Part shown: one piece after another, positions 1 to 64,000 of the stretch
How positions within the stretch are numbered: the first letter of the stretch is position 1
Layout: every line of letters begins with the position of its first letter
Virus record (IMG/VR): IMGVR_UViG_3300032007_000021
Length of the DNA stretch: 64,000 nt
DNA from: an uncultured virus (IMG/VR IMGVR_UViG_3300032007_000021)
Lineage: Duplodnaviria; Heunggongvirae; Uroviricota; Caudoviricetes
Reading direction: 5' to 3' (one strand)
The notes under the pieces: generated by a model
What the model was told of the DNA's origin: nothing
What the model saw: only the letters and a program-made list of their open reading frames with translations
Database searches by the model: none
Translations under genes and position numbers: made by a program

Positions 1-864
1 TCTCACCCTCTGCTATATATTAAATCTTTTCCATTTTTCAAATTCTGCATCACTAAACATTCCAAGTTTCAATCTTCTATAAGGTATCTATGATTCCAAA
101 GACTGATATTTTGTCCGCATCTGAAATTCATTTTCTTCATTTCCACAATGCAGAACATTATAACCCTTTTTTCTTATATTAGAACCAATAGATTTCATTA
201 AAGTGGATTTTCCCTTGCCTGACAAACCAAATATAACTGTCAACTACGCCTTAAACAGACCTCCTGTCTGTTTATCCAATGTAGGAAAACCTGTAGGAAT
301 ACCAGCATATTTCTACGGATGTTCTTTCCTGTTTATAATCTAATCAACCCAATCATCCACATCATTGTGTAATGATATTACTCTTCCTTTATGTTCTACT
401 CTATTCAAATCCAAAGAACCGCTTTTCAAAATAGAAGCGGCATCATCTATACTTCCAGACTACAATTTTTCATAAGCCCTAACGATCACATCATTTATAT
501 CTGTTGCCAAATCAACTTCATTGAACTTAGAGACTATCAAATCCAACTCCTATGTAGGAGATGAATTACAACATATTTCAAACTAAGCTTGTAAAGCCTT
601 TATTTTTATTTCATCAGACTATTTATCAAAATCCTTATCTAACTCATACTCAAATTGTTCTTTTGTCAACAAACTCTTATTTTCTTCAAAATATAATTTT
701 ATCTTATTGTAAATATAAGTCCTTTCAATATTAGTAAACCATTCTTGCTTGCAAATTCCGTACATACGTTGTAAATACATTTTATCTTTCAAAAGATATT
801 TTAATAGTTCTCTTTCCAAAGACACAGTTTTTATTTTTCTTTCTTTCCTACTCTACATTTTCAT
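1..864 (-). CDS. dnaB: Replicative DNA helicase, DnaB family (3' end outside window)
   Basis: TAG read-through gives GIPTGFPTLDKQTGGLFKA*LTVIFGLSGKGKST (Walker A); ATG at 864 with AAAGGG upstream. Confidence 0.9.
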
Positions 865-881
865 TTTCCCTTTATAAAAAA

Positions 882-911
882 TTACCTATATGAATTTCTC
901 CATATAGGTAA
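882..911 (-). terminator. Hairpin TTACCTATATG..CATATAGGTAA followed by T-run on minus strand (copy 1)
   Basis: Perfect 11-bp inverted repeat; identical copy at 24352. Confidence 0.7.
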
Positions 912-935
912 CATCAAATTTTATTTAATATATTT

Positions 936-1196
936 TTACTCTCTATTATCTTGGAAATTTTCCTAATTACAACAAAATTCATTGTGACAAACATATAAAA
1001 CTACCTGTCCATCTTCATATTCAGGCTAACCGAACAAAGCACATTCCTGTCCACAGAAACTCAACTATTCTCTTCCTGTTTTGGGGTCTTTATATTTTCG
1101 ATAAGGACAAAACAATTTCATTCTTTCCTTTTTATTTCCCCTTGAAACTTCGATTGTACCAAACTTATTTAAAACCATTTCTTTTACTTCAGTCAT
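936..1196 (-). CDS. Hypothetical Cys-rich protein
   Basis: ATG with GGAG RBS, 3 internal TAG, ends TAA. Confidence 0.7.
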
Positions 1197-1209
1197 TTTA
1201 ATTTCTCCT

Positions 1210-1503
1210 TTACTTGTTTATTCTTGTAAATTTCTATTCTCCATTCTAATCTATATATCCAAGCACAATACCTTCTGTACTTAAAAACCAACCTGTTATC
1301 TTTATACTCTATTCTTTTCTTGTATGAATGCCATGTTTACTGTATTCACAGAATATCTTATTATGATGATTAGGACATAACATTACCAAATTATTTTTCT
1401 TATTACCACCTCCCGCTTCTTTAGGCAATATATGATGTATATGTATTCTACTTCTTTCAGAAGTCTTATAATCACAAAACTAACATTTATATATTTCTTT
1501 CAA
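1210..1503 (-). CDS. HNH endonuclease-like protein
   Basis: KC*FC...IHHILPKEAGG..N...LCPNHH; TTG start; ends TAA. Confidence 0.8.
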
Positions 1504-9118: not shown

Positions 9119-9685
9119 TTATTTTTGTACTTCTAATTTCTTCAACCAATCATATTTACCATTGTTCAATCCTAAAAACAAATCTATTATACTGGGAGCT
9201 TTAGGCTCCCTTATCAATTTCATCCCACAACTCTTCAATAACCTGTTGCCTTTTTTATTGTTACATTTCCAACAGGAAACCACCACATTCTCCCATTTCA
9301 TTTTACCCCCTTTGCTCTTCGGATATACATGATCTATCGTCAATCTCTTTCCAGTTATCCTTTCTCCACAATATTGACAAATATGACCATCTCTGTCTAT
9401 AATGCCTTGTCGAGTAACCCTCATCCCCACATTCTTTATATATACTTTCATTAAAATTACAACTGGCCTGCAAATGAAAAATGTAACTCCATATATCTTC
9501 TATACCAAATCTTTCTCTCGTTCTCTGGAATACTCTATCCATTCTTCAAAATCATATCTCTGAAAATTCTCATCCAAAAAATAAGCTTTCCCTTGATATA
9601 CTTTATCTATTCCATCAAATATACTGCAAATCCTTACCGCTTCATAATTCTTATTTAAAACCAACACCCTTTCATTCTTCTTCAT
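9119..9685 (-). CDS. HNH endonuclease
   Basis: VLVLNKNY N-terminus joined over one TAG to RDGHICQYCG..TIDHVYPKSKGG..WENVVVSCWKCNNKKG. Confidence 0.9.
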
Positions 9686-9935
9686 TCATTTTCTCCATGT
9701 TAATCATGTTCTCCACAAAAAATTCACATTCTTCATTGAAATCAAAATCTGTAATCTTTTTCTGTAAAGTACAAGTCTATGTTATATCTTCTTTCCTTAT
9801 ATACAAATTACAAGCCCCCTTAAAATTATCCGTCTTAAAACTACCATATAAACAAGGATAAATATTACCACGATCTATTCGAATTATATCATTACATTTT
9901 GAACAAATTTTACAAACTTTAAGTCTGTCTATCAT
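9672..9935 (-). CDS. Small Cys-rich paralog family member
   Basis: LKVCKICSKC...CEFFVEN. Confidence 0.65.
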
Positions 9936-9947
9936 CTTGTTTTCCTT

Positions 9948-10640
9948 TCAATTCAATAATTCTTCTCCATCACTGCACAAATCTTTTTTCACTTTCACAT
10001 ATACATCAAGTTTATTCTCTTTTATAAACGACAACAAATATTCTTTATTTAAAAAATTCTTATATACTTCTTTCAATTCTCCATACAACAATCCAATCAA
10101 ATATCCAAAATCTTTACCAACAATTTTATTAATCTTCTATATATCATCCTTACAAGTAATTTTATATTCCACTTCCTCATTTATTGTTTCAAACTTCACC
10201 CAATTTTTTCTTATCGGAGAAACAAAATTGTTCAACATTCCATAACGCAATTCTCCAAATCTATTTTCCCAACTCCATTTACCGTTTATCCAAGTTCCTC
10301 CACAAGACAAAACAAATATATTCCTTTCTCTGATACTTCCAAATTTTTCACATAATCTTTGAATAAAAATACTGTTATTCTTGCCATAAATTCCACAAAA
10401 CCTGATCTTCAAACAATCCTTTTCTACTATCAAAAAACAATAAGTATATCTCTTTTTAATCGCTGAACCATAAACTTTTTTTATCTCATCTCCAAAATCA
10501 TAAGGCTTAACTTGATTGTCCGTTAAAAACCCATTATATCTATCCACATGATAAAAATTGTCATACTTACCATCAATATAACCAAATGACAACTCACGAC
10601 CATTCACAAAAATTACCTTGTCACCAACTTCCATTACCAT
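9948..10640 (-). CDS. Hypothetical protein
   Basis: Track ORF extended over one TAG to TGA. Confidence 0.7.
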
Positions 10641-10685
10641 TCTCCTTTCTTATGTTTTTTATTTACTTATATATATAACAACATA

Positions 10686-10718
10686 AAAAAAGAGTGGAAT
10701 TTTTTATCTTCCACTCTT
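10686..10718 (-). terminator. Rho-independent terminator
   Basis: AAGAGTGGAA/TTCCACTCTT stem plus T-run on minus strand. Confidence 0.65.
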
Positions 10719-10746
10719 AACAAACATACAGGTCAATCTTATCTTA

Positions 10747-11193
10747 TTATTCTATCTCTATCAAATCTTCAGTATCTTCTTTGTTCTAAAACGGTATGTC
10801 AATTTTCAACAAACCATTCTCAAACTTAATCTTGATTCCTGAACGATCTATATTACTTGGAAGTTTATAACTGTTCTCAAAGGAACGATACGAAATACCA
10901 CTCTTCACAACAGTCTCATTTTCTTTATCCTGCTTTTCCTGTTTCTCACAGCGAACTACAAGATAATTCTCCTTTGATAAAGTTACTTTTATCTCTTCTT
11001 TCGTAAATCCTGCCAACGCATATTCAAGCCTATATCCAATAATATTCTCTCCTTCTTTCATTTGTACAATATTCATCGGATATGTCGTTTTCATTCCAAC
11101 CATATCATTGTGGAATACTTCACTGATTATTTCATCAAATAAATCTCCACAAATCGGATATGATCCAAAATTCTTCCTAATCAAATTATTCAT
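10747..11193 (-). CDS. Hsp20/alpha-crystallin small heat shock protein
   Basis: YPMNI, ALAGFTKEEIKV, GISYRSF, FENGLLKIDIP; extends over one TAG. Confidence 0.88.
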
Positions 11194-11314
11194 GTTTATC
11201 TTTCCTTCCTGAAAAACCCTCATCAGCATTTTCTTTTTTGTTTTGAACTCTTTTTCACAAGACATTCCAGCAACCTGTATGTTTATTTTTTATTTTACTC
11301 AATCAAAACTATTT

Positions 11315-11782
11315 TTATTTGTTAAAAAATACCTTTTCTCCTTCAAGTTTTATATTTCCTGCAAAACAATCTTTCAAATCTATTTCTTCAAACAATCTCA
11401 CACCAAAATATCGCTTCTCTTTATCCACACATTCTTTCGCATATCTTCCATCTGCATTTTCATGTTGATTAAATCCTTTATATATTTCCAATTTGTTTGT
11501 ATCTAAATTAATTATATAAGCATATTCACAAAATAAACTGTCTTTCAAAAATTCATGACAATCTTCAAATTCTTGATTAATCTCACCTTCATCCCAATTC
11601 CACACATCTCCCTTCCCAACAAATTCTATTTTTTCATAAATATCTATCAGTTTCTTTATATTCTTCCCTTCCAAAAAACACAACAGCTCATTGCCTAATC
11701 CTTCAAAATAACTGTCACAATGATTATAACCAACCTTATCAATTCCATTCATCCTGACACCCAAAGCTCCTCTTGTACTCAT
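11315..11782 (-). CDS. Conserved phage hypothetical protein (no TAG)
   Basis: MSTRG..YNHCDSY..GLG..DSLFCEYAYIINLD; intact in standard code. Confidence 0.8.
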   Translation of the reverse strand: MSTRGALGVRMNGIDKVGYNHCDSYFEGLGNELLCFLEGKNIKKLIDIYEKIEFVGKGDVWNWDEGEINQEFEDCHEFLKDSLFCEYAYIINLDTNKLEIYKGFNQHENADGRYAKECVDKEKRYFGVRLFEEIDLKDCFAGNIKLEGEKVFFNK

Positions 11783-11801
11783 CTCTTATTTCTCCTTTCT
11801 A

Positions 11802-12128
11802 TTAAATATAATATTTACCATTATCATAATCTACTTCACCAAACACTCGTTCATCCTCTTTCCAAGAAAATTTCCATTCCAAAAAATTACCATCTTTATC
11901 CAACACCATTACATTTGTAAAATACATCGGCCCACTACTCCATGGAGCAACTTGTATGTGTTCCCTATATATCTTCCCTTCTACCTAAACTTCTCTTCCA
12001 TATATCTCTTCAGGAAAATTAAAAGCATAAAAACCAATAGGCTCTTTCGTCCTATGCACTCCTTTCTGTTTGGAAAACCATTCTTCACCTTCTCTCGTCA
12101 ATCCTATCCATTGGTCACTCCTACTCAT
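11802..12128 (-). CDS. Hypothetical protein
   Basis: MSRSDQWIGL...QVAPWSSGPMYFT; one TAG. Confidence 0.7.
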
Positions 12129-12131
12129 CTT

Positions 12132-12452
12132 TCATTTCCTTTCATATTTATTCAATTCATTAAAAAAATTGGTCAACGTTTCTTCTCTCAATCTCCTGCA
12201 CACTTCTCTATAAGCCTCTTCTTTGGTCTTAAATATATCTTTTTCTTCTATAATTGATGTGCCTATCAAATAATTCTGTATATCTCCATTCCTCATAAAA
12301 ATATCTTTTATATACGACATATATACCGTTCTTGACAAGAAATTTTCTATTCGAAAATCAAAATCACTTAATTCAGCAAACGAAGTCTTTCTATCATATA
12401 AATTAGTAAAAATTATATAATAAACTTTTTCGTCTCTTTTAAATTTAGTCAT
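12132..12452 (-). CDS. Hypothetical protein (no TAG)
   Basis: Track ORF with GGAG RBS. Confidence 0.7.
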   Translation of the reverse strand: MTKFKRDEKVYYIIFTNLYDRKTSFAELSDFDFRIENFLSRTVYMSYIKDIFMRNGDIQNYLIGTSIIEEKDIFKTKEEAYREVCRRLREETLTNFFNELNKYERK

Positions 12453-12465
12453 AACATGTCTCCTT

Positions 12466-12951
12466 TCATTTTAACCATTCAGGCTCTTCTCTTACATAAT
12501 ATTCAAATTTACTCAAAACTTTTTTCTTATATCTATAATATCTCCTATATGATTCAACTATCTCATCTATATCATTACCTCCTGTTTTATATTCTTCCAA
12601 CATACATTTCGGAAAACTTGTCTCTTTAAAATTTATCACCGTTTCTTCTTCTGTTTTCCAATATTTATTGTAAAGTCCTTCACATTTATGCACCTTTCCA
12701 TATCTTAATCTGTATTCTTTCAATAGCCACTTCAAATGTATCTTCAACCATTCATAATTATTCCTGTTCTCCAAACATCTTACACACGGATGATTCTTGT
12801 ATGTTATCTTATATCTTTCACCTCCTAATCCATTCATCCTGTCTGTTGTACTCAATAGTTGAACACTCTCCAATATCATCTTCACTATATGCTTATTACA
12901 CATATATTCAGCACTCTTCTTAGGGTCTTTATCCAATACAAATATATTCAC
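12466..12951 (-). CDS. Pyrimidine-dimer DNA glycosylase-like protein
   Basis: MNIFVLD..P..SA....KHIVKMILESVQLLST, NHPC, YGKVHKC, SYRRYY. Confidence 0.8.
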   Translation of the reverse strand: MNIFVLDKDPKKSAEYMCNKHIVKMILESVQLLSTTDRMNGLGGERYKITYKNHPCVRCLENRNNYEWLKIHLKWLLKEYRLRYGKVHKCEGLYNKYWKTEEETVINFKETSFPKCMLEEYKTGGNDIDEIVESYRRYYRYKKKVLSKFEYYVREEPEWLK

Positions 12952-14156: not shown

Positions 14157-15377
14157 TTAAACAGAATCTATTAAATTCTGAATTTCTGTGTTATGAGGAA
14201 CGGTAAGTGCCTCATTCTTGAAACGGTTTAATATATTTATTGCACCATTAACATCAGCATCTAATATTGTGCTACATTTGATACATTTATATATTTCACC
14301 ATTTCTTGATTCCTTGTGAATCTCTCCACATTGACTACACATTTGAGAAGTATAAGATGGTGAAACAAATGTGAGACAAACACGGTTTTCTTCACATTTA
14401 TCCAAAATCCTTCTATATACTAAATTTATATTCCAATTACCAAGTAATTTTCTTGTTGTTTTATTTACTCTACCTTTTGTGTTTTTGGTAATGTTTTTCA
14501 AATTTTCCATAACTATCAAATCATAATTTTCAATACCAATTTGATTTACCGCATTACCGATATAACACTTGATTTCAGCAAGAGTTTGATTATAATTTCT
14601 ACTCCCGACTTTTCTTCTATGTAACTTTTTTATCAATCTCTTTATATCAGAGCCAAGTTTTCTTCCATCAGATAAAGTTAAAAGTTTGTTGATACCTAAA
14701 TCTATACCAATACTTGATTTTCCTGACTTTATCGGAGTATCTTGCTTTTCAAAAAACAAATCAACAAAGTATTGATTTTCAACTTTTCTCAATGAAGCTG
14801 ACTTTGCAAGTTCAAATCCATTTGCTATCATTTTGTTAAACTGTTTGTGTTTTTTTGTGGGAAGAATTAAACTATATCTACCGCCAAATACCGAACCAAT
14901 CCTTATCCACAAATCAAAAGATTTTGCTTTTTTGCTATCTTTAATTGAAATTAAATCACTGTTCAAATCAATCACAAATTTTTCAAATCCTGGTTTCTTT
15001 ACCTTTCTATTGATTCTCTTATCCTTAATCCATTCAGAATAAACTTTATCCAAAATACCAAAACGATTTCTATTTGATTTTTTACATTTAGCAAAAACTC
15101 TTTTATATTGTTTATAAACAAGTTGTTTATTTTTATCACGAATTGATTTGATTATTTTGATTGCTTGATTTCCAGCACATTTCATTGCTTTTCCAAGCAA
15201 CCAAGAATTTACTTTATGATATTCAGCAGAACTAATTTTAGAAGGTAATTTATCTTGTTCAAAATACAAATCAATAAAGCAATTTACCACTCTCTGATAT
15301 TCTGTAAAGAACTCATCAAGTTTATTTTGCTTTGCTTTTGTAAAGTTGTTTAATGAACAAGATACTCTGCGTTTCAT
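14157..15377 (-). CDS. tnpB: TnpB RNA-guided endonuclease
   Basis: GIDLG, VMENL, CxxC/CxxC zinc finger, DADVNGAINI; RuvC triad intact. Confidence 0.93.
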   Translation of the reverse strand: MKRRVSCSLNNFTKAKQNKLDEFFTEYQRVVNCFIDLYFEQDKLPSKISSAEYHKVNSWLLGKAMKCAGNQAIKIIKSIRDKNKQLVYKQYKRVFAKCKKSNRNRFGILDKVYSEWIKDKRINRKVKKPGFEKFVIDLNSDLISIKDSKKAKSFDLWIRIGSVFGGRYSLILPTKKHKQFNKMIANGFELAKSASLRKVENQYFVDLFFEKQDTPIKSGKSSIGIDLGINKLLTLSDGRKLGSDIKRLIKKLHRRKVGSRNYNQTLAEIKCYIGNAVNQIGIENYDLIVMENLKNITKNTKGRVNKTTRKLLGNWNINLVYRRILDKCEENRVCLTFVSPSYTSQMCSQCGEIHKESRNGEIYKCIKCSTILDADVNGAINILNRFKNEALTVPHNTEIQNLIDSV

Positions 15378-15568
15378 TTCAATCCTTTTATCTTTTTATA
15401 TTCTAATTCACTTGAATATGTTTTTACAAATTCATCAAATTTCAAACAAAAACTTTCAACTGTTTTATTATTCTTTTTTTCAGATAAATTTTTACATAAA
15501 ATACCAGAAAAATGTCCCCATAATTCACCTTTCTCAAAACATTTTTCTTTACATCCACAAATTTTCAT
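15374..15568 (-). CDS. Small IS passenger ORF
   Basis: ATGA overlaps with both tnpA and tnpB. Confidence 0.6.
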   Translation of the reverse strand: MKICGCKEKCFEKGELWGHFSGILCKNLSEKKNNKTVESFCLKFDEFVKTYSSELEYKKIKGLK

Positions 15569-42362: not shown

Positions 42363-42365
42363 AAC

Positions 42366-43906: not shown

Positions 43907-43916
43907 TTTTATTTCC

Positions 43917-46516: not shown

Positions 46517-46527
46517 TTTTTACCTCA

Positions 46528-49500: not shown

Positions 49501-52500
49501 ATACTCAACAACTTCCGTTTCTTCTTTACCCTTAAATCTGTCTTTGTAAATTTTATTCATTTCTTTCACAAAATCAAATTGAGCATCTTTGTCTCCAACC
49601 AATCCTTTCTACCAAAGTTTTCTAATTCCAGGGTCTTTAAGAGCATCTTGAAATTTCTACTTGTTCTCTTCAGTCACAATATCTTTTACATCCTTTAACT
49701 AACCTTTATCATTATACAAAACGTCTTTTAACCCACTTAAGATAGTATCATAATCTTTCTTTTCTGATTGCACACCAGCAGGTTTCTATATACCCTTTAA
49801 AAATTTATAAGAACTACGATAAAAATTTGAAAGTTGACTAAATTTCTATAATCTCTATTGATGTTTTGCATACTATGCTTTATCTGCATTGGCAGGATTA
49901 AATTCTTCGATCTTTTTCCATAAATTCGATAATTGGTCATAAGCATTTGTGGTTTGATCTTTACCTTCAACTTTTTCTGTAACAGTTATTCCACTTAAAA
50001 TATTAACATTATCTTTCAACCATTTTTTAACATCAATATCCTAAGCCCCCTTCTTCTTCTATAATTCTTTACCAATTTTCTATCTTCTCTCTAAAGCTGT
50101 TTCTTTATCTGTTTTTCTATTTTCTACCCATTTTCTCGCAACTTCTACTTCTCTGCCCCATCTTTTTTCTTCGTCAGACTAAGAAGAAGCACCAAATCTT
50201 TGTTTATTTATTCTTTTTGCATAAGCTTCATTCTTTTTTTGAACCGCCGCCTAAAGTTGTTTTCTATTCTATTCATATACTGATTCATGTTTTTTAGCCT
50301 ATTTACTATATCCCTACATTTGTTTCTTTAAAATCGCTTTTTGTATTGCGTCTCCACTACCAAAAAATCCCTTCTATTCTTTGGATTTAGCCTACTGCCT
50401 TTTTTTATAAGCTTCATCTATTTCCTACAAACGATTAACCTATTTCTTGTTAACCAAACTATCAGCTTTTTCCTTTATTTTAGCTATCGTATTTTCAAGA
50501 GAAGTTCTTGTTTCACTCATTAATTCACCTCTCTTCGCATAAATCTATATCTAATTCTTTGCCATCTATCCAAATAATTGCAAAGAATCACCATAAGCCA
50601 CCACTCTCTATTCAGAAACAGATAACACTTGATTCAAATCCGATAACATCTTAATCATCGGATTAAAATTAACCATCTCTATTATCTTTTCAACTTTTTT
50701 TGCTTCTTCTTGTAATTTCTACAAATATTGTGTATCCAAAGAAACTTTCATTTTTTCAGTAGATTTCTTTAAATCTACTCCCATTTGCAAACCTCTCAAA
50801 GCGATAAATTTTTTACTTGATTGCTCATAAAGTAATTTTTCTACACCAGTCATATTTGCTTTTGGTAAATCAACAAGCAAATCTACCATTTTTTCTTGCA
50901 ATAATTGCAAAGTTTCTTGAAACGCAACAGAATTATCCACATTTTCATTCAACTGTTCTATTTCACTAATCATTGTCTTATACATTTTTCTTGACTAATT
51001 GGCTGTAGGACTGTTTCCTGTTATAGCACCCATTTGTTGTCTAAGTTTCTCAAGAACATCACTTTTTTGTTGTGCAACAATTTGTTGAGATATTTCCTTT
51101 TGAAATACCTTGCCTTTTCTTTTATCTATAGATTCATTTACATTATTAATCAATTTTTTAATTTCAGACTTATTAGCCTGCTTTTGTGCATCTCCTTCAT
51201 AAGCACTGGAAAACTTTTGTTGCATACCACTAATTTCTTGTTGAGTTTTTTGTAACTCTGTCAAAAGATTAGCTTCATTTATCTTTCCCCCAGCCCCAAC
51301 AACATTTGTACCTTGAAACACACCTTGAACTTCTTTTGCTCTTTCTTCTACCAATCTACTCATTCTTGTACGAGTTGTTTCTATTCTTTCTCTGTCAAGA
51401 TTGTATTTTTGTGTTGTTTCCTACATTCCCTTTCTAATAGACTCACTCATTTCTTTCAAATAATTTTGATTCATAAATGATGAGCCAACATAATTTTGTC
51501 CCAAAAATTTTTGCAAAGAACCGGATAACTATGCTTTCATCTATCTCACAACCATTTCCGGCAATTCACTAAACTTACCAATAGAAGCACTTAAATCATT
51601 TAATACACTCATAAATTTTTCATTCTATTGATCTAAAATTCTTATTCCTTCAGCTTGTACAGCTTCAGGATCATTATCAAAATCTCTTGTCAACAACTAT
51701 TTTGTAGCCTATCCTATTGATCTAAAATTCTTGGAAAATGAATTTAAAGCATTTGTAAACATCATGCTTTGTTCAGCCATAAACGCAAGATTAGACCCGC
51801 CAAACTATCTTTTTAAACTGATTCCTGATTCAAATGCTTTTTTTGCTGTATCATAAAACTTTGTTAATGCACCACTTTTTACTTCATTCAAAATAGCATC
51901 TATCGCTCTCAAATGCGTTAAAGTCTTTAACATATCCGTTCTTTGTTTTTTTGCATTCTTTTGATAATCCAACATTCTCTTATTTGATTTGTTTTGTTCT
52001 TCAACAGCTTCTTCATTCAAAACATATTCTCCATCTTTCTCTTTAACAAATCTTGATTTTCTCCACTCTTTTCCCAGTTGTTCTTCCATAGCCGCTTCAA
52101 ATCCCTATTTAAGACCAATCTTTTGACCAATCTCTTGCGCTCCTAATGCCATACCTTGAAACGCCGCTTCTGTTCCTAAAACAGCACCAGCGCTTGCAAC
52201 AGGCGATGCTCCTATCGTTGCTATACCAGCGGCGGCTGAAGCTATGTGACCAATCATTGAAACATTTGAATAATATTCCTATCCTTTTTTCTTTGACTAT
52301 TCCTATTGTCTTCTCCTTACTTTTAAAGCATCAAACGCATTTTTAGATATATTAAAACCAAGTTCCTATTTCTGTCTTAATTTCCTCATATCCTACAACT
52401 ATTGTTTCGTTTCATCATTCTTTTGTAATTCTTCCAATTCTTTTTGCTTTTTATTAGACATCCAATTGGAAATTGCCATTCCACCAAGCCCAACAAGCGC

Positions 52501-54561
52501 TCCTGCCCCCGCTCCAATACCCGCTCTTAACAATCCTGCTTTTAATCCACCTTTACCAAAAAAACCACCACCATATCCTTTTACACCCATTTTATTAGAT
52601 ATATTTTTCAACATCATTAATGTGCCACCAAAACCAACAGTCATTCCTCCCAAAATACTAGCAACTTTTACAATGTTCTAACCATATTTAGCAACCATTA
52701 ACGAGCCTTGCTTTACAATATCTGGCATAGTATTAACAACAAACACCTCAAAATCTTCCAACCGTTTTTCAATATTTTGATTCGTCTATAAAATAGCCTT
52801 GTCCCCTTCACTCATTTTCAACATCCCTTCAAACTATCCAAAAGCACCTTTTTCAAACAACTATATAGCCGCATCAATTTTTCCACCCTACAACAAATTT
52901 GAAAACAAATTTAATTTATCCTAAGAATCATCACTCATTCCTAACATCACATCTATTTGTGCTTTCGGAATATCTTTCAATGTATTCATTACTTCCTTAA
53001 AATCTTCAACATCCAATTTCCCAAGATTTTGTCTCAAATTTTCAGCAAGTATATTTGCTGTTCCAAATCCTTTATTGCTATTTACAGCAAATTCTTTTAT
53101 TGCAGGACTTAAACCAATTATTTCTTTTCTTGTCAAATTCATTTGATTTCTAAAATTAGTCAAACGATTTTCATCTCCAAAAGCTGTTTTACTTATCCTC
53201 TCAACACCTTTCATTGCAACATTTAATTCAGTAACATTCATTATGGATTCTTTTACCTTATCACTAAATTCTTTCACTGCTTTTCCCAACAAAGCAACAG
53301 AAGCAACTAATGCAATGAAACCAGTTGGATTCTTACCAAAAATTTCATCAAAAGAATGTGCAAAACGCTAAGATTTCTTTCCAAACTAATCTAATATATT
53401 TTCTGACTATCCTATAGAATCATTTAATTTTTCAATCTTTTTATAAGCATCTTCCATAGATTTTAAGTCTTTAGCGCTAATCAATTCTCCAACCGCAGAT
53501 TTTAAAGCGTTTTTCTATGAAAAAGCACCACTTCGATTAACTCTCTCGGCAACTTTTGCTGACATAGCAAAAATTTTTGTTTGTCTGTCCTGCTATATCT
53601 TTTCTATACCAGTTTTACCCATTGCAAGATGACTTGACTTAACAGCCAAATTTTTTAAGTTTATTCCCTATAAACTTTTAGGATCACCAAGTTCTTCCTA
53701 TAACTTGTTCCATTTTTCTTTCACTTCTTCTATCTATTTAGATAATTTCTATAATCCAGAAAAACTATTGGTTTTACTAACATCTAAATCATAAAATTTT
53801 ATCTGTTCACTATTTAAATTAGTATAATCATCAATTAATTTATCAAGCATCTTTTTTTGATACTATAAAGTTTTTCTTTGAGAATCAGACAAAGAATCAC
53901 TCTTCAACTCTTGATTTATAGCTAATTTTGAACCAACTAAACTCAATCGTTTTTGTGTTTTCTACTATAAAACATCTTTATTTGTATAAAAACCTCTTTG
54001 CAAGCTCTTAAAATCATTTGCATCAGTAGATAATTTCGGTCTTAAACCTTTTGTCAAATCGCGCATAAAATACTAATTAAAATAAGATTTTCCAATTATT
54101 CCTGACAATTTAATTTTCGGCAAACCATCTTTAACTACATTTTTTAATTTTTCAACCTGTTTCGTCAACAAAGAAATACTGTCAATTCCTGTCATCTTAA
54201 AATCAACGATTTGAGATTGAGCTTCCTTTACTTCTTTAAAAGCTGTCACTAATTTTTTTATGTCTTTATCACTGTTTCCAAGTTTTCCAAAACTTGAAAT
54301 CAAAACATTTGTCTATATGTCAGACTCAGCCACACTTTTTTTGTATTTTCCAAATAATTCAACCACATCTTCAATACAATCTTTTAAACTGTTGCCTCCT
54401 TGAGTCAACGAAAACACTATGGAATTTAACGCACTCATATCCTATTTTGATTTTGATGCGTTTTCTTGTATCTTTCCAAGCGCTTCCGCTAACTCTATCT
54501 ATCCATTTTGCACCAAATTTTGCCTTTCAACATCAATTTGGTTCATTATGTCACGAGGCAT
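46528..54561 (-). CDS. Tail tape measure protein (~2,677 aa)
   Basis: Nine track ORFs all in one frame, separated by TAGs; coiled-coil, Gly/Ala hydrophobic segments; GGAG RBS; ends TGA. Confidence 0.85.
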
Positions 54562-54572
54562 TTATTTTCTCC

Positions 54573-55082
54573 TTAAATGATATTCATTTTCTTCTCAAAT
54601 GTAGCCAATACCGTGTCTAAAAGACTAGAAGGTAATAAATATATCAGCTACAATGTTTCATCGCTTAAAGCACCGTTTGGATCAAATTTTAAGGGTATCT
54701 TGTTTCCTTCTTCATCCTACAAATTCCAATCCACCAAATGCCATACCAAAAAGAACTATCTTAATTTTAACGTATTAATTGTTGTTGTTTTATCTTCAGC
54801 GTTGTATTGCAAACTTCTGTTTCTGTAACGATTCAATTTATCATACGAAACCTTGCTGAATTTAAACGTATAATCCTTTCGAACAAAAACATCATCTTTA
54901 CCATCATCTTTTACATATTCCAAAGGAAATATCATAATCAATTCCCCTGTCTATGCAGAATGGAAACCAACCACCGTAATCTCAATCTTTTCATCTTTTT
55001 TGATGAAAATTTTAGGTACAATTTTTGATTTAACTTCTTTGTTCTACGCCACTTCAACTACTTCTTTTTTCTCTTCTTCCAT
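54573..55082 (-). CDS. Putative tail assembly chaperone
   Basis: Directly upstream of TMP; LVDWNL..LSDET; paralogous to 56660-57208. Confidence 0.6.
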
Positions 55083-55103
55083 TTTATACTCCTCTACTTT
55101 TAC

Positions 55104-55964
55104 TTATGTTATCTTGAATATTTCACTCGAAGCCACATTACTTCCACTAATTTTATAAGTTTTCATTCCTTCTCCATTTACTCCTCCAAACTGCCAATTC
55201 TCAGACTATTTATATTCATTTATAAATGAAAAATTATGACTTCCAAGTTTGATTGTCGTACTCTTTAACCAATTTTCCAAACTTGTAATAGTTGCACTAC
55301 ATTCAATAATTCCAACCCGAATATAAGTAGGCATTAAATTGTCGTTGTTCAAAAAAACTGGCACACAATTTCTTTGAAATGAAATATTGAAAGATTGTAA
55401 ATATATCTTCCCTTCTGTATTAATCCCTGTTCCTTCATTATTCTGTCCAACAACACCATATTGCCAATACTTTTCAGGGCTATCATTTAATACAATCTCC
55501 CTATTTTCCCAATTTGAAACCTAAAACTATTCTTTGTAATTATTTACACTTTGAAAACTTATTGAACAATTTATCGTTCCGTTTGTTGATCCGTTTATAT
55601 CAAAATTGTTCCAAACACACTTTCTCATAGTAATTACTTTCATACCGTCACAAACAATCACATCAAAAACAGTTTTTCTGTTAAAAAAATCATTTGGTTC
55701 TTTTTCTCCAGATGGAGCAAAAAAGAAATTACTCAAGCCTTTTGTCAATTCAAAAGATAAATTGCCGCTAAAATTTAATGTTCCATAATTCAGCCTTATT
55801 TTTGATCTCCCTTTATCCGAAAAAGGAACGTGATATGTGTTTTGAAAAGCAACATTAAATGATCTGTCAACACTACCATTTGTCAATGGAACATAATAAG
55901 AGCTTGATCCAAATTTTAATATGCACCAACCTCCAAAACCTAAGTTATAACTTGTTACAGCCAT
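55104..55964 (-). CDS. Tail tube-like protein
   Basis: Beta-rich, GFGGW N-terminus, FSGNLSFELT; resembles 59901-60989. Confidence 0.55.
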
Positions 55965-55974
55965 ATTTTACCTC

Positions 55975-56667
55975 TCAAAATCCATAACTCACACTATTTT
56001 TTCCACTCTTATTTGCATTATTGTTTCTTGCAATTTTGGAAGCAGTTAATTCATTATCAGCATTCAATATCCTTCTCAATCCATCAAAAACTTCTTGAGG
56101 CAATCTTTGAATATCATAATAATTCAATCCAAACTTCTACCAAAAAGCAACCAAATCACAATACAAACTAACAGTCCAATGTGGATTACTAATTCCTTGT
56201 CCTTTATCAAAAAGCAAATAACATTGCTTTTGAATTTTACCATTCTATTCTTCAGTAAACCCAGCTCTATATACATATTGCTATAAAACGATTTTTAATA
56301 TCCGAGGATGAATTTTATATATCTTCTCCATACTTTCATCATCCAACATGCCATCTTCGTTTCTATACACTTCAAAATCAAGGTTTGAACCCTTATACAT
56401 AAATCTCAATATGTACTCTTTTAACTTTCGAGTATTATAAATATAAATCATATCAAATTCATTCACGCCTTGTTGCTACAAAATACAATCTTGCTAAATT
56501 AAAGTCCAAAAATAATGATTCATATTATAAAAATAAAAATCCAGTCGCTATGTGTTGGGTTTCTACTCTTCAAAGACATAAGGTTGTTTTCCGGATTCTT
56601 TATAAACCCAGCAACTTATTTTTTGCTCATCTTTGTCATATTTATCTATACGATATATATTATTCAT
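55975..56667 (-). CDS. Putative tail assembly protein
   Basis: Read through TAGs; LDDES motif; FW*KFGLNYYDIQRLP. Confidence 0.55.
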
Positions 56668-57208
56668 TTCCCTATAAAACTCCATTCATCATGTTGATAA
56701 TATTATTGATTATCACGGGGAAAAAGCCAAGTATTACCTGATAACTTTCATCACTTAATACTCCCCCACAATGCAACAATTTGAACTTTGCATCTATCTA
56801 TCCAAAAGACCAATCCAATATCAACCTTTTTATTTTTATTTCATTCAATTTATTAGAATCTATTAGAAAACTTCTTGACTATTGGTTGAATTTCATACAA
56901 TTTTCTTTCCATTCCAACTATTCTTTATAATTCCACATACGAAATTTAACCCAATGATGCTACGCTTCAGAATAAAACTACACATCAGAATCCGGTATCA
57001 CATTAATCCTTTGTTCATTCTATATCAAGCCAAATTTTATTACAAAAAAACTTTCCTTTGAAACTTCATATTTCGTAAAAGATTTTTTTTCTTTTTTCTC
57101 TTCTTTTACTTGCTTCTTTATTTCAACTTTTTGCACATTATTATTTGTAAGACCTAAACGATCTTGAACACTCATTTTCGCGTTTTTCAAATTTGAAAAA
57201 TCATCCAT
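56660..57208 (-). CDS. Putative tail assembly chaperone
   Basis: LILDWSF..LSDES; GAGG RBS. Confidence 0.6.
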
Positions 57209-57225
57209 ATAATTACCTCTTAAAA

Positions 57226-59817
57226 TTATAATTCAATCTCGTAATTCATATTCTTTTCGATTTTATTTACATAATTAATTATACTATCAAAAGTCATAAG
57301 ATAATTCTTGAATAAAACTATCCACCTCGCCAAATCTTGTATATCATCAGATGTTTTTATAATATTTTCAAACTCAGAATTCGAACCAATTAAATACAAA
57401 CAATAATCGTCAAATTTATAGGAATTTAAAGCAAGAAAAGCAGAATCACTTTCTCCAAATATTTTTTCAATTTCATTCATCATCAAATACAATCTCGCAG
57501 ATGACTAACTATAACTTCCGGAAAAACTTTCACTCTAATCCGGATAATAACAAATTTTCTTTAATTCATTCAACAAATAATGATAATTACCATCTATCAT
57601 ATTCATAATCTTCTCGTTCAGACAGTTCTTGTTGTATTTAATAAATTCAAAAGATTCATTCAAAAAATCAAACAAATAACTTGATTTTTGATAAAACAAA
57701 CTCTTCAAATTTCCGTTGATTTCATTTATAATCTCTCTAATATGACTGTTGGAAATGTTCAAAAATTCTTCATTTGTACTTTCTATTTTTTGAAGAATAT
57801 CAAAAATTTTGTCCAAATCACTTTCACTCTTATCAAAACAATCAGACAAATCTTGCAAACAAATATCTATTTTATCTGACAAACCTTTCAAGCTCATCAA
57901 ATTTATCCTTGAATTTGAAAGTCTGCCCAACAAATCTCTCATAACATCTTTCAGAACAATGACCTAAAAACTGTATGAATTACTATAAGAAAAACTATGC
58001 GAAAAAGACTTATCATATAAATACAAAACATCCCCGTAATTCTTATATATTTCACTGTTTGATACAACCTATATTCTAACAAAATTTTCATCATAAATCA
58101 AATTACTGTTGGAATAAACTCCATGCTATAACATCAAATTTGAATCAGAATAATAAGTATCATCTTCAAAAATCAAACGAAACTATCCATTTTCATTTAA
58201 CTCGTAAATCTTGTTATTCATCAACTATATTTGAGCAACAGAATCATAACTATATCTATCACACAATTTTTTAAATTTTTCATTCAATTCAACAACAGCA
58301 TTGCAATAATAATTTCTCTTTTCAAAATCGAACAAATTTTCTTTTATGTCAACTTCCAAATATTTTTCATATACATCTTGGGAAAAAATCAAAGCATCAA
58401 TTTCATCTATTTTCTTTTGAACATCGCTGACAGAATACTGTTTTAATCTACCATAATCTTCTTTTACATTTACAAGAATGATGGAAAAACTACTATCACT
58501 TTCATATCTATTTATTAAATATGTGTTTTCATTTATAACACCACTTGTATCTATATCTAAAACAGAAAAATCTAAAACTATTTCATCTTTATAAAAACTT
58601 CTTCCATTCTAACTTTTCAACAAATCCTCTAAACTATAAATATTGTCATAAACAACACCAAAAAAATTCAAAACAACCTCTCTTGAATCAGTTGTTTGTT
58701 CTACTATCACAGACAAATTATTTGTGTTCAACTCTCTTAATTTTTGATAGCTGAAATAAAGAGAACTATCCGACTTATCAACAAAATTACCATAATCAAC
58801 TTTTGCTTCTTCCAACAACCTATTTGTCTTATTAATTTGAACTTCATATTTTTTCTTGACAACGGAACTTGACTCCTATTCAATCAAAGTGTTTTCCATG
58901 TTTCCCAGCAACAAGTATTTCATTTCGTATAAGGAAATATTGTCTCTATTACCAATAACAGGATTTACTTCTTGCAACAAACATCCTTTCAAATTCAAGA
59001 AATTTTTTCCATCAAATTTCAACAAAACATTTTGCGTTTTCAAATCTTCTCTTGTAAGATAACCATTATTCAAATCTTGCTTGAAATCAAAACTCATTGC
59101 CTTGTTCATTATAACCGAACATCCAAATTCAACTGTCGGCCTTTCAAAAATAATTTGATAACAAGCCGGAGCATAATCATCATTGACTCCACTCATTGCA
59201 TATTTAGCATTCAAATTTTGACTAAAATTAAAATCAAATTCAATTACATCACTCTTTATCCCATTGAACAACTACAAACCAAATCTGTAATATGCTAATA
59301 TATCTCCTTCTCTTTTCTTGAATGGAAAATGATTTTGCATACCAATCAAATGATAATTATTATTTGAAAAAACTGAAGATACAGAACCAACATTTTCCAT
59401 AACCGTAAAAAAATCAATTTTCATCACTAAAACAGAATTTTCAGAAACAGAAAATCCCAACGCCATAACATAATTCTATTTCTTATCAAATACAAAACCC
59501 GTTGATGGATCAATAAATTTTAACCAAACTCTTCCTTTCCTATTATTGCAAATCAAATCTATAAAATCATTCAATAAATCCACTGTACATTCAATCTAAA
59601 CACTTGTTTCACAAGTCAAAGCATCTTGAATTACAGGATTGCCATATCTATACAAAGTTTCTGCATCTCTCTATAACGAATGGTAAACACCGGATGTGGT
59701 TATCCAATTCCTATTTACACTAATAGTATATGATGTCGCTGAAATATATCTTTCTATTCCAGCAACATTCATTGTTCCATATCCGGTGAAACCTTTACAT
59801 AATAACTTTGTACTCAT
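57226..59817 (-). CDS. Large virion protein with tube-like N-terminal domain (~863 aa)
   Basis: Five track ORFs in one frame; GFTGYG N-terminus. Confidence 0.6.
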
Positions 59818-59837
59818 ATTCTTTGTTCTTCTCAATT

Positions 59838-59875
59838 AAAAAAGGGCATCCGCACCTATCATACGGACACCCTTT
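59838..59875 (-). terminator. Rho-independent terminator after the putative major tail protein
   Basis: AAAGGGTGTCCG/CGGATGCCCTTT stem with G-U pairs plus T-run. Confidence 0.7.
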
Positions 59876-59900
59876 ATTTTTCAATCAAACTTTAGAATAA

Positions 59901-60989
59901 TTAACCTTCAACCACAGATGAACTAGAATTATCTTCAAAAGGTGTATGTAAGGAAATCGGTGGCTCTTTCCCGTTACCAATAGCTTGGAAACTGAAATCA
60001 GCAGTAATATACTGTCCACCAGTCTGAATTGAAGTGTTACCACTCTGATTAATCGCAGTAGGAATAAAAATCCATGTCTTATCTTTGTTTGCAATCTTAT
60101 CTCCATGACCAACTTCATTGGAAGCATTCATCATGAATCTCAAAGAACGTCCAGTATGATATTTCTCTGGTTCGAAATCACCTTGCAATCTGAACACTGT
60201 ATAACTTCCGCTACCAGTCATAGTACCAATCAAAAGATAATCCGGGCCAAGAGGAGCCTCCTATCCATCCATAGCGGCTTGACCAATATTAGAACCAGAG
60301 CCTTGTTGACAGCATTTTAACGGAGTGATTTCAGAACTATATTCTGCACTCCATGTTGTAATATCATTCAAAATAGTATTAGCTTCTTCAGGTGTTCCAT
60401 CTATCGGGCCACGCAACACTTTAGTTGCCCAATAAGGATACAATCCATTCCTTGCCATAGGCAAAACACCATTAGATATACCAAGCGGAGTATTGCTACT
60501 AGTACCTGTAATAACTCTGTTTCTTGCATTAGGATCGGTACTCATGCCATCAATATAACTTTGGAAATCACAATCACAACTAACCACATCACCTTCACTT
60601 GCATTGAATCTCAAAGAAGAACACCAACCATAACCATCAAAGCCATTTTCGCCATTAGGAAGAATAACAATCCTTGTTCCTGAAGGCTCTCCTCTTCTGG
60701 TAAAACAGAACAAATCAACACAATATAATCCTTCTCCCTATGTAAGTTGGAAACTGAAGTTACCTTCCAATCTTAAATAGTTGTTTGCATAAGCAACCTG
60801 TTCTGCTGCATTCTGATAACCAGCTCCCCAAACTCCTTGAGAGAAAATAGGATCATGATTAATCGTAAAAGAACCACCAGTTGCCAATAAAGTTGTAACT
60901 TTCTATTTTAACTACGCATCAAACGTACCATTTCCTAATTGTACGACACCTCTATATCCAGCATCGCCGCTAAAAAGTGTTCTTCCCAT
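59901..60989 (-). CDS. Putative major tail tube protein
   Basis: GYRGVVQLG, LEGNFSFQLT; GGAG RBS; followed by a terminator. Confidence 0.6.
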
Positions 60990-61045
60990 ACTTTTATCTC
61001 CTTATATATTTAAGTTTATCTCTATATATTTGCAATATAAACAAA

Positions 61046-61237
61046 TTATTTTAATTTATCCAACTATTTTTTCAATCGAACTAATTTCTTGAGCATACTG
61101 TCACAGTAATACTCTATCCTTTCAGAATCATTCTTTGTTAAATTATTCTTAAATTCATTTTTTATTTGCATTTCATCTTTTACGACTTCATACAATTTCT
61201 ATTTCACTTTTGTTCTTTCATAATCTCTGTAAATCAT
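61046..61237 (-). CDS. Hypothetical protein
   Basis: ATGA overlap; 2 TAG. Confidence 0.45.
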
Positions 61238-61440
61238 GAATACAACTCCGTTTTTAATTTTTGCAAATAAAAAATTGAATAATTCACAGATTTTTTCAAC
61301 TATTTCAAATCTTCATCATTAAAGCTTGAATCCAGTCCATAATAAAAATTTACTTTTATTCCTTCATCTCGGAACAAAGCTTCATTCAACCCTTGTCTAA
61401 ATTTATTAAATAAAAATCTCTGTTTTTTTATGTCTGGCAT
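61234..61440 (-). CDS. Hypothetical protein
   Basis: GGGAG RBS; 1 TAG. Confidence 0.5.
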
Positions 61441-61482
61441 ATTTTTCTCCCTTTTAACATTAATTTAATATAAACAAAATAT

Positions 61483-62037
61483 TTATATCAAAACATCCTC
61501 TTTATAATCCATTTTGGCTGGCCCCAACGTCAAATCTCCAACAGGGAATGTCTATATAACCTTACCACTCCAATCCCATTGTGCAACTCTTATTGAACCA
61601 TCTTTCGACGAATTATAAACAACACTACTTATTGTACCAAATTGACAATAAACTGGTGTTTTATTTTTATCGTGATATTCATTTGGAATAATGAAACACA
61701 TATTACTTGGATAAGTATATATTTGAACAATCCTTCTTGTCAACTAAGATATATATTCCGCTCCCAATTCATCATTATCACAATTAACTGTCAACGTACA
61801 TTGTATTGTATATTCTCCTGATTGTGCAGATGTCGTAATCCACTCATTAGAACCATTTGTAGGCTCAAACTATATACAAGGAAATGAAGATAGTGGTAAA
61901 GTCTTTCTCATGCCTATAAACACGTTTAAATGCTCATTAGAACCAAGATAATGTTGCAATATCTCATCTATACTTTCAGTATTAACTTCAAGTATTTCTA
62001 TCAATGCTTTAATTATGTTTATCGGAGAAATATACAT
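61483..62037 (-). CDS. Putative tail terminator/completion protein
   Basis: Position between neck and tube genes; FPCI*FEP. Confidence 0.55.
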
Positions 62038-62052
62038 TCAAAAATTCCTTCC

Positions 62053-62802
62053 TTACTACATTCTCTAAGGATTCTTACTTGGCATTAATTCCGGAGGGGC
62101 AAAATGACTTATTCCATTTGCTTTCCATCTCAATCCCGGTATTCTTGCATTATATATAGTAAGTTGATATATCTATTTCCTCGCTTCCTATATATATTTA
62201 CTTACTGCTTCTGTTTGATTCGGCTATAAATTTTGAAACTATGATTGTAACAACAATCCTGCTGTCCATTGCAAAGCGGTTAATCTTATTTTTCCGGGAA
62301 ACACTTTCTCTAATGTCCCATCTGGATTTACTCTATTATATCTTCTTACAGGAACAAAATAATACTACTATAAATATGAATCAATATGACCATTCACTAA
62401 TTTCATATATTTTTCAACCATTTCATTTGTGATTTTACACAATTTTCCGTTTCCAATATTCAAAGATTTACAAAACAACAAAACATCATTGACTGTTCCG
62501 GCATAATATTCAAAACTCCAAGTCTCATCTCCATTTTGTTCTATACCAAAATTACTGTTTCCTTTATTAATAATTACACTATAAGGTTTTTGTTGTGTTG
62601 GTAAATACTATTCGTTAAAAGTAATTTGAATTGTATCATCATCTATATACTTCACCTATAAAACAGCATACTAATTGTTTTCATCATAAATTTGACAAAA
62701 AACATACCCGTTAAACAAATGTTTAACGGTTAAAACATTAGCTTCCCATGTATAAGAATAATACGTTCCTGTATAATTTTCATCAGTAACTTCTATCAAC
62801 AT
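62053..62802 (-). CDS. Putative head-tail connector protein
   Basis: GHIDSYL**YYFVP motif; neck-module position. Confidence 0.55.
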
Positions 62803-63236
62803 AAATCAAATTCTCCAAACTTAAAATTCATTTGTTTTGGATTGTTTCTTATTTCTTTTTGCCAAACGGTATCATTATCCATAATCTTCTATAATTTATT
62901 CTTATCAAAACTCGGTATTCTTTCAAAAATCTGTTTCGCATATTTAGGCATCTTATTGAAACATATTTGTATTTGTTTTGAAGTCAGAAAATTTTTATTA
63001 TTATACCACTTACAAATACTTGTTAATATCTCCGCATCATTACCAGTAAATCCAACATTATTCAAATCTCTTGTAATATTCTATTCTTTTTCTTCAGGTG
63101 TCTGTTGTTCGCAAATAACTTGCAAGGCTCTTAACAACCATCTCTTATCTGTCATCAACTTATATTTCAAATAAGCTATCATCTATTTTTTAAAATACTA
63201 TGCCGTTATTTCTTTTGCAATTTTAAATATATTCAT
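62796..63236 (-). CDS. Conserved hypothetical protein with partial leader motif
   Basis: MNIFKIAKEITA; RAL..QTPEEK..NNVGFTGNDAEILTS..SKQ..MPKYAKQ. Confidence 0.7.
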
Positions 63237-63246
63237 ACTTAACTCC

Positions 63247-64000
63247 TCATATATTCAAAGAATCTCCACCACTACGGAAAATTCCACTGTTAATTTTCAA
63301 TCCTCTTATTCTTGTACTATTATAAGTTCCATGCTAACTTGTTCTCAATCCGTTTCCAATCATCAACGCCCTATAATATGCAGGAGTTGGCTTTTTAAGC
63401 ATTTGCGGACTTCTAAAAGTAGGATTATCCAACGTTCTATAAGCCCTATCCTCACAATTTCTTTTCAAAGTCTATAATTGACCAACAATATCTCCACTTC
63501 CTCCGTATAAATTCTAACTGCTTATCGCGTAAATCAATCTACCTTTCCAAATATCATAATCTAACAATAATTTTTCAAAACATTGTGCTAATGCCAAATC
63601 TGCAATAATCGGATCATAACTTGTAGGAGCATCTTCCAAAGTATAATTTGTAACTCCTCCTTGTCCTGCTGTATTAACTGTTCCTAACGCTCTCAAAATA
63701 TATCCTTTCAACACAAAAGCAGGAAAATAATTGAAACTATAACTCACTTGCACATTATCTGCCGGAGTCAACTAAAAATTCATCTTTATTTTTCCATTCA
63801 AATAATCAACCACATACATTTCAGGATTCAATGCTGTCTATGATCCATTCAAAAACACTTCAGGCTAAAATGCTTCATTCCAATTTTGATAATGAAACTT
63901 ATAAGTATCTCCACTGACTTGTTGTTGAACTCTTGTACCTGTTTCATAATACACTTTTAATTGCATATATTCAATCAATAAAGAACTCATCATAGAATTA
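63247..64000 (-). CDS. Putative neck/head-tail adaptor protein (5' end outside window)
   Basis: Track ORF extended both ways over TAGs; ends TGA. Confidence 0.55.

Follow-up and report, generated by a model that had tools for sequence, protein, structure and literature searches.

The 64,000-nucleotide stretch of DNA analyzed here, referred to as the window, comes from the uncultured virus IMGVR_UViG_3300032007_000021 (Caudoviricetes) and is identical to part of L081, a 187,352-bp contig from a bovine-gut metagenome, in which it occupies approximately positions 11269-75268. It holds replication, nucleotide-metabolism and structural genes with in-frame TAG codons that very probably encode glutamate, and a TAG-free gene for a glutamyl-tRNA synthetase (GluRS). 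Near-identical words of the window occur in independent bovine gut metagenome runs at shares of 0.45, 0.42 (an RNA library) and 0.27, where a share states only that such words are present in the run.

TAG as a sense codon

Under table 11, the window contains 46 open reading frames (ORFs) of at least 100 amino acids, scattered over both strands. When TAG is read through, there are 82 such ORFs and the minus-strand frames tile the window, the longest being a minus-strand ORF of 2677 amino acids with 105 TAGs. Gene calling gave 81 genes that together span 93% of the window; 73 lie on the minus strand. These genes contain 465 in-frame TAGs (2.33% of codons) alongside 1067 GAA, 233 GAG, 462 CAA and 135 CAG codons, and TAG makes up about 26% of the Glu-type codons window-wide (457/1752 = 26.1%). 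The 80 complete gene calls end at TAA (44) or TGA (36) and never at TAG; among the 72 complete minus-strand genes, 37 end at TAA and 35 at TGA, with ATGA overlaps at 8 of 72 gene junctions. As TAA and TGA remain stops, the reassignment is restricted to TAG. In addition, the anaerobic ribonucleotide reductase NrdD, when read through its TAGs, is 643 amino acids in length, and most of its homologs have 637–645. TAG is thus a sense codon in this phage. The original prediction, made from the letters and ORF translations of the window, had stated that gene fragments rejoin only across TAG and that genes end only at TAA or TGA, with ATGA overlaps; both statements agree with these counts, as does the comparison it proposed between coding with TAG as stop and coding with TAG as sense (46 versus 82 ORFs).

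Stop-to-stop ORF coverage was dropped as evidence, because reading TAA as sense also lifts coverage, to 0.94. An excess of TAG in the last three codons of genes, tested as a footprint of old TAG stops, was not significant (7 observed versus 5.1 expected).

Assignment of TAG to glutamate

To assign TAG, a Codetta-like decoding was used in which each window codon was scored against the homolog columns of four proteins, NrdD, SNF2, DnaE and the DEAD helicase, with homologs filtered to 80% redundancy (15, 52, 74 and 149 kept, respectively). At the 63 TAG sites, glutamate scores +77.9 nats, glutamine −9.2 and aspartate −33.4. The decoding is right for 58 of 60 sense codons, the two misses resting on 2 and 4 sites, and CAA and CAG come out as glutamine. 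The most common column residue at the 63 sites is E in 35, K in 8, D in 4 and Q in 4, the Q-topped columns including SNF2 residue 652 and helicase residue 74, while E forms the column majority at 22 sites and Q at none.

Relatives of the NrdD region most often carry GAA (372) and GAG (345) at the TAG sites, followed by TAT (70) and AAA (67), with CAA and CAG outside the top 12 codons. Furthermore, a broader comparison is provided by G005, a complete 329-kb standard-code phage that has 28 of the 81 window genes in common, structural block included. The alignment takes in 180 TAG sites, and the G005 residue there is E at 80 (44%), D at 17, K at 11, N at 11 and Q at 10 (6%). Its residues at window GAA/GAG sites are E in 39–40%, and at window CAA/CAG sites Q in 24–31% and E in 14–15%. 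The log-likelihood of the G005 residues at TAG sites is −379.5 under the Glu-codon profile and −443.9 under the Gln-codon profile, 64 nats apart. Likewise, the ratio of E to Q is 80:10 at TAG, 174:17 at GAA/GAG (P = 0.66) and 30:56 at CAA/CAG (Fisher P = 4e-14). E stands at 47 of 101 aligned TAG sites in the replication block and at 33 of 79 in the structural block, where Q stands at 5.

An internal control that draws on no outside data is given by a family of six small Cys-rich paralogs at scattered positions, where TAG and E replace each other: immediately before an invariant Gln, the six members have E, E, TAG, E, E and TAG. The invariant Gln of this family is never TAG, which, together with the decoding of CAA and CAG as Q, upholds the earlier claim that conserved Gln in this phage is written CAA/CAG. 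The paralogs have an N-terminal ICxxC and a C-terminal C-x-(F/Y)-x-x-E-Q motif, and searches of Pfam and PHROGs families gave no match to them. Profiles, relatives' codons, G005 and the paralogs agree on glutamate, as had been predicted, and all of them reject glutamine; the mapping of TAG to E by profile column statistics, which the prediction had put forward as a check, is part of this agreement. Taken together, the sequence comparisons indicate with high confidence that TAG encodes glutamate.

The positive control for this procedure consists of G001–G004, TAG-recoded IMG/VR phages of 111–179 kb. In these phages, TAG exchanges with CAA/CAG between strains, TAG sites have Q in 23% and E in 15%, and the tRNA(CUA) has the U1-A72 pair and G73 of a Gln-like suppressor. 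Because G001–G004 read as glutamine by the same procedure, the method separates the two codes. G001–G004 have only NrdD, NrdG and dUTPase in common with the window (3/81 genes) and are otherwise unrelated to it, so their suppressor tRNA is irrelevant to the window phage and they serve as a control only. The 80 loci initially gathered as relatives by NrdD were likewise rejected as genome relatives, given that G001 shares 3/81 genes. The NrdD of G001–G004 is ~71% identical to that of the window in genomes otherwise unrelated, suggesting that nrdD moves between phage lineages; a DnaE search of IMG/VR found nothing closer than 41–47% identity. Records of the G001–G004 clade (L008–L011) have 15–29 tRNA matches each, and a 76-nt tRNA(CUA) is identical in three clade members (e.g., L084:2517-2592).

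Conserved glutamate sites

Several individual TAG sites had been named as invariant or strongly conserved glutamates (Table 1). Those in NrdG, the DEAD-box helicase, NrdD and SNF2 are indeed conserved Glu positions in their families. For the 116-residue putative nuclease, Glu at the named site is supported by the one relative and by G005, in which all three TAGs of the gene align to E, but the proposed PD-(D/E)xK family has no Pfam or PDB support. The glutaredoxin site PVL-TAG-V (38074) is moderately conserved: Glu is the commonest residue in relatives (E 35, S 19, K 6, V 4), and the strong conservation that had been claimed is not seen. The dUTPase site at 8703 is not an invariant Glu, as relatives mostly have D (D 9, A 3, G 2, S 1), with E, Q and D in the three best-matching PDB chains. 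PDB sequence searches with NrdG and the putative nuclease gave no usable match.

Table 1. Features of the window, with positions, strand and the evidence for each.
Feature	Position	Strand	Basis
Minus-strand gene block, TAG sense, TAA/TGA sole terminators	1..64000	-	ORF calling, 73 genes
Low-TAG block, 8 genes (HNH, HSP20, pyrimidine-dimer glycosylase, others)	9119..12903	-	5 TAGs/127 Glu-type codons
IS607-like insert: TnpB, small ORF, MerR-serine recombinase	14157..16173	-	0 TAG/48 Glu-type codons
Six scattered small Cys-rich paralogs	16465-16785, 17228-17539, 17539-17835, 20208-20471, 20744-21010, 26381-26761	-	TAG alternates with E
DnaE-type polymerase with Hint intein, 19 TAGs	21160..24048	-	Pfam, homologs
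SNF2 helicase with LAGLIDADG intein, 21 TAGs	26777..29584	-	Pfam, homologs
SNF2 TKDTVE-TAG-R	26894..26896	-	E in 114/119 homologs
Bacterial-type GluRS, 506 aa, 43 GAA/GAG, 0 TAG	29857..31377	-	Pfam, NCBIfam, PDB
DEAD-box helicase, 10 TAGs	33379..34278	-	Pfam, homologs
DEAD-box helicase motif VSTI-TAG-S	33931..33933	-	E in 145/148 homologs
NrdG motif GGL-TAG-PF	35823..35825	-	E in 73/73 relatives (GAA 50, GAG 23); E in G005
Anaerobic ribonucleotide reductase NrdD, 13 TAGs	36064..37995	-	Pfam, homologs
NrdD FVG-TAG-FVSW	37507..37509	-	E in 116/120 homologs
116-aa putative nuclease YV-TAG-IKG	38557..38559	-	E in 1/1 relative and in G005
Tail/structural block common to G005	41430..63993	-	Alignment to G005
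Tape-measure-like gene, 2677 aa, 105 TAGs	46528-54561	-	Within structural block

Close relatives and their annotation

The database copy of the window SNF2 (P0121) has Q at all 19 TAGs covered. To read the proteins of relatives, columns otherwise at least 80% E were taken as invariant-Glu columns. Among NrdD relatives, Q occupies 21/25 such columns in P0002, 12/25 in P0009 and 8/25 in both P0003 and P0054. Among SNF2 relatives the counts are 12/14 in P0123, 8/14 in P0124 and 7/14 in P0122, and the DnaE P0241 and the helicase P0362 have Q at 3/6 and 3/3, respectively. The proteins of these same relatives have Q at only 0–2 conserved D or K columns. On the simplest reading, the nearest relatives appear to be TAG = Glu phages whose proteins were translated with table 15, so that the code would be clade-wide and the clade mis-annotated. 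In P0002, Q at 21/25 columns suggests that TAG has nearly replaced GAA/GAG as the Glu codon of that phage.

At the nucleotide level, an independent 3.4-kb assembly from another sample, L082, is 98.3% identical to the window and keeps 11 of the 11 TAGs in the overlap. The two differ at 34 codons, most of them synonymously, also within the TAG-bearing helicase.

A TAG-free glutamyl-tRNA synthetase

The GluRS gene matches the Pfam models PF00749 (class-I catalytic core, 1.7e-67) and PF19269 (all-helical anticodon-binding domain, 5.5e-17). It scores 378.8 bits against the NCBIfam equivalog TIGR00464 for bacterial GltX (cutoff 289.95), and the GluQRS and GlnRS models score far under their cut-offs. 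In addition, it matches GluRS in the PDB at 1.5e-82, with its HIGN, RGDDH and SKR stretches aligned to those of solved enzymes. The nearest atlas clusters are Lentisphaerota-type bacterial GluRS of 528–531 amino acids (TM 0.93 with the atlas model); because these have a long insert too, the 90-residue insert of the phage enzyme relative to PDB structures is attributed to lineage.

At the window-wide TAG share of 26.1%, the probability of finding no TAG among its 43 Glu-type codons is 2.3e-6, making this the most significantly TAG-free gene of the window. Its G+C content, skew and third-position composition are like those of the rest of the phage, arguing against a recent import. The gene is absent from both complete standard-code relatives (2/2). 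Relatives of the enzyme were found neither in IMG/VR nor in GTDB genomes, and in JGI metagenomes only its own contig and one 3.4-kb strain fragment were recovered. GenBank phages gave 42 matches, all below 60% identity and at 24–33% among the matches listed.

The largest non-coding gap of the window (31732-32572, 841 bp) lies upstream of the unit formed by a small ORF and GluRS. Of the 59 differences from L082, 17 fall in this non-coding stretch, all 8 gap positions among them, and an Rfam search of it gave no match. Promoter-like sites around the GluRS unit occur at chance level (16 versus 17.4).

Proposed mechanism of the code switch

A code change module has been described in Jade phages, in which a suppressor tRNA, a tryptophanyl-tRNA synthetase (TrpRS) and release factor 1 (RF1) are encoded in standard code in a TGA-recoded genome (Borges 2021; here and below, published work is cited for the portions of text available). 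We infer, from the parallel between the Jade TrpRS module and a TAG-free synthetase for the reassigned amino acid, that the phage GluRS is likely the standard-code component of a code switch. The enzyme would be made under the host's standard code and then take part in the switch, either by charging a tRNA with a CUA anticodon or by securing the supply of Glu-tRNA. Such a tRNA, charged with Glu, would be encoded in the ~123 kb of contig beyond the window. A phage tRNA(CUA) is probably the decoder of TAG, and the chances that the phage GluRS is the enzyme charging it are evenly balanced.

The switch would have to act very early in infection, before replication, because the replisome genes themselves carry TAG. 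TAG supplies Glu codons in the genes for replication, for nucleotide metabolism and for structural proteins, with a share of Glu-type codons of 21% in DnaE, 29% in SNF2, 27% in NrdD and 31% in DnaB.

Several results weigh against the assignment or the mechanism proposed for it. No tRNA of any kind was found within the 64-kb window by ARAGORN (0) or Rfam (0 at E ≤ 1), and a permissive ARAGORN run on it returned only noise. A tRNA(CUA) suppressor is therefore lacking from this part of the 187,352-bp contig, and no release factor domain was found in it with Pfam and PHROGs. The GluRS itself is canonical, showing no mark of adaptation to a CUA anticodon in its sequence. It keeps the Arg aligned with Arg358 of Thermus thermophilus, a residue that we take to be the reader of C36 of tRNA-Glu and from which no conclusion is drawn. 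Other genes of the window are TAG-free too, and TAG-freeness alone does not single out a function. Huge phages also carry GluRS without any link to recoding (Al-Shayeb 2020). As for the meaning of TAG, 28 of the 63 TAG columns are not E-topped, a proportion similar to that of real Glu codons, and a minority of other residues at TAG would be compatible with the column statistics.

Other genes and TAG-poor regions

Besides the genes discussed above, Pfam and PHROGs models identify DnaB, RIIA, patatin, dUTPase, HNH, HSP20, pyrimidine-dimer glycosylase, Mom and a glutaredoxin-like protein in the window, while the same searches of the tail/structural block returned no family matches. The intein parts of DnaE and SNF2 carry TAG at E-rich columns (e.g., SNF2 residues 306, 360 and 402), from which it follows that the inteins share the code of the phage. 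Besides the GluRS gene, the block at 9119-12903 and the IS607-like insert are also compatible with the standard code. The TnpB of this insert has a counterpart segment in G005 at 58% identity. Mom is known for DNA adenine modification in phage Mu; the gene for the Mom-family protein (25778-26206) has TAG at 9 of 12 Glu-type codons, the highest share among the annotated genes. The densest TAG content of the window is found in a 94-codon ORF at 17832-18116, with 12 TAGs (13% of codons). A search for homologs of this ORF found none; it may encode a genuine Glu-rich protein, or it may be no gene at all.

The window has a G+C content of 29.8%, with G making up only 8.5% of the plus strand; the locus in the standard-code relative G005 has a G+C content of 46%. 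On the coding (minus) strand, G stands at 21% and C at 8.5%, so that the GC skew across the whole 64 kb is about 0.43, and third-position C is 0–10% in every gene.

Alternative explanations

The conventional alternative is that the phage uses ordinary code 15, with TAG read as glutamine. The literature available reports only TAG → Gln reassignment of this codon in phages, 4 of the 63 TAG columns are Q-topped, and the database copy of SNF2 has Q at its 19 TAGs, although the last reflects the gene caller's choice of table and is not evidence. Glutamine nevertheless lies 87 nats below glutamate in the profile decoding, G005 has Q at 6% of TAG sites rather than the 24–31% seen for true Gln codons (P = 4e-14), and relatives have GAA/GAG at these sites. 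The same method returns Gln for the G001 clade. This alternative is extremely unlikely. A sequencing origin, in which GAG is misread as TAG through systematic errors of base calling or assembly (at a modified base, for instance), might draw on the Mom-like DNA-modification protein encoded in the window and on its very odd strand composition. Such an error is at odds with the 233 GAG codons that remain, the equally frequent use of GAA and GAG by relatives at the TAG sites, the avoidance of specific genes by TAG, the recurrence of 11/11 TAGs in an independent assembly and the many independently assembled relatives with the same signature, and its probability is practically negligible. TAG might also be ambiguous, read as a mix of Glu, Gln and Lys by near-cognate readthrough, or encode a non-standard residue such as pyrrolysine. 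Sequence statistics show only a selected average, and K is the commonest residue in 8/63 columns and D in 4/63; TAG is found, however, at invariant catalytic-type Glu positions (73/73, 145/148) where mixtures would be costly, its profile is indistinguishable from that of GAA/GAG (P = 0.66), and Pfam detects no Pyl genes in the window, leaving ambiguous decoding very unlikely.

Two further alternatives accept TAG = Glu and concern who brings it about. The host itself could read TAG as Glu, without a phage-driven switch, which would more easily accommodate TAG even in replisome genes. On the other hand, TAG avoidance is non-random, with 0/43 in GluRS, 0/48 in the IS607-like insert (presumably host-derived) and 5/127 at 9119-12903, a pattern that fits a need for certain genes to be readable in the standard code. 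In addition, a survey of ~2.7 million prokaryote assemblies, as far as its text is available, lists no bacterial TAG → Glu code, and a recoded host is considered unlikely. The other alternative is that the phage GluRS takes no part. A phage tRNA(CUA) built on a tRNA-Glu body could be charged by the host GluRS, the phage enzyme serving as general translation support and being TAG-free by early expression or by chance. This arrangement would suit the canonical sequence of the enzyme, with Arg at the Tth-R358 position, its Lentisphaerota-like affinity (TM 0.93) and the lack of any tRNA in the 29 kb to each side of its gene, which contrasts with the compactness of the Jade module (Borges 2021); synthetase genes, GluRS among them, are moreover known in huge phages (Al-Shayeb 2020). 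Against it, the amino acid of this synthetase is the very one to which TAG is reassigned, its gene is the most significantly TAG-free of the window, and the gene is absent from 2/2 complete standard-code relatives. An uninvolved GluRS has a considerable chance of being correct, somewhat short of even. Regardless of the role of GluRS, a phage code in which TAG is Glu and TAA and TGA are still stops is the best explanation overall, and one held with good confidence.

Comparison with known codes

Among phages whose code differs from that of the host, only TAG → Gln and TGA → Trp were seen by Borges 2021, and phage TAG recoding is treated as Gln by Peters 2022. Similarly, table 15 is used for TAG by Cook 2024 and in a 2026 jumbo-phage survey. 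In the available text of a 2026 preprint, TAA/TAG → glutamate is mentioned only as contamination in archaeal assemblies. A text search of the literature, with subscription journals outside its coverage, found no published report of phage TAG/UAG → glutamate. The TAG = Glu phage code is therefore apparently unpublished, consistent with the view in the original prediction that a TAG-only Glu code is undescribed in phages.

The phages of code 15 (Lak, crAss-like, Garnet/Topaz) likewise use TAG as sense and TAA/TGA as stops, show a collapse of coding density under table 11 and have some genes readable in standard code, but their TAG encodes Gln, and Glu is the residue in the window phage. The same applies to G001–G004, which are also TAG-recoded and have a similar NrdD, and whose TAG behaves as Gln. 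In addition, the code 15 papers, in the text available, stress late and lysis genes, whereas in the window replication genes are recoded as heavily as structural ones, and neither a suppressor tRNA nor release factor 2 (RF2) was seen in its 64 kb. A further likeness is to the Jade module, in which, too, the phage itself encodes the synthetase of the reassigned amino acid, in a gene that lacks the recoded stop. In Jade, however, the change is TGA → Trp, and the genes of the module sit side by side as a group of three upstream of the lysis cassette (Borges 2021), whereas the window phage has TAG → Glu and its GluRS has no tRNA or release factor within 29 kb. A host-like GluRS in a large phage genome is likewise among the huge-phage synthetases of Al-Shayeb 2020; there it is not tied to codon reassignment, while in the window a TAG-free GluRS coincides with TAG = Glu.

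Among the NCBI tables, table 15 assigns TAG to Gln, which is not what is found in the window phage. Table 30, for peritrich ciliate nuclei, has TAG = Glu alike, but it is a eukaryotic nuclear code in which TAA is Glu as well, whereas TAA ends 37 of the 72 complete minus-strand genes of the window. To our knowledge, no NCBI table has TAG = Glu alone.

Implications

Stop recoding in phages is at present handled as TAG → Gln or TGA → Trp, and gene callers hard-wire table 15. If the TAG = Glu code is real, a share of the 'code 15' phage proteins in databases would have Q where E is real. Such proteomes would carry a charge-changing error at 2–3% of residues, often catalytic glutamates, and the error would degrade homology searches, structure prediction and proteomics matching, given the mass difference of 0.98 Da between E and Q. 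The argument of Borges 2021, as given in the available text, that suppressor tRNAs find only two 'susceptible' synthetases, GlnRS and TrpRS, would then need revision. Genetic-code engineering would also gain a new part, a natural amber suppressor that inserts Glu and may come with its own synthetase.

The full system envisaged here, a rumen jumbo-phage clade with a natural TAG = Glu code and a phage pair of GluRS and tRNA(CUA) acting beside the host's standard machinery, is put forward tentatively, as a possibility that falls a little below even odds, and the mechanism is testable. If it exists, it would be the first case, among viruses and prokaryotes alike, of an amber system that inserts Glu, and TAG would be the main Glu codon in some members of the clade, as in the relative whose NrdD has it at 21/25 invariant Glu positions. 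Furthermore, because even the polymerase gene needs TAG to be read as Glu, the code would have to be imposed very early, and these phages would offer a test case for how a phage can put a new code in force right from the first minutes after infecting its host.

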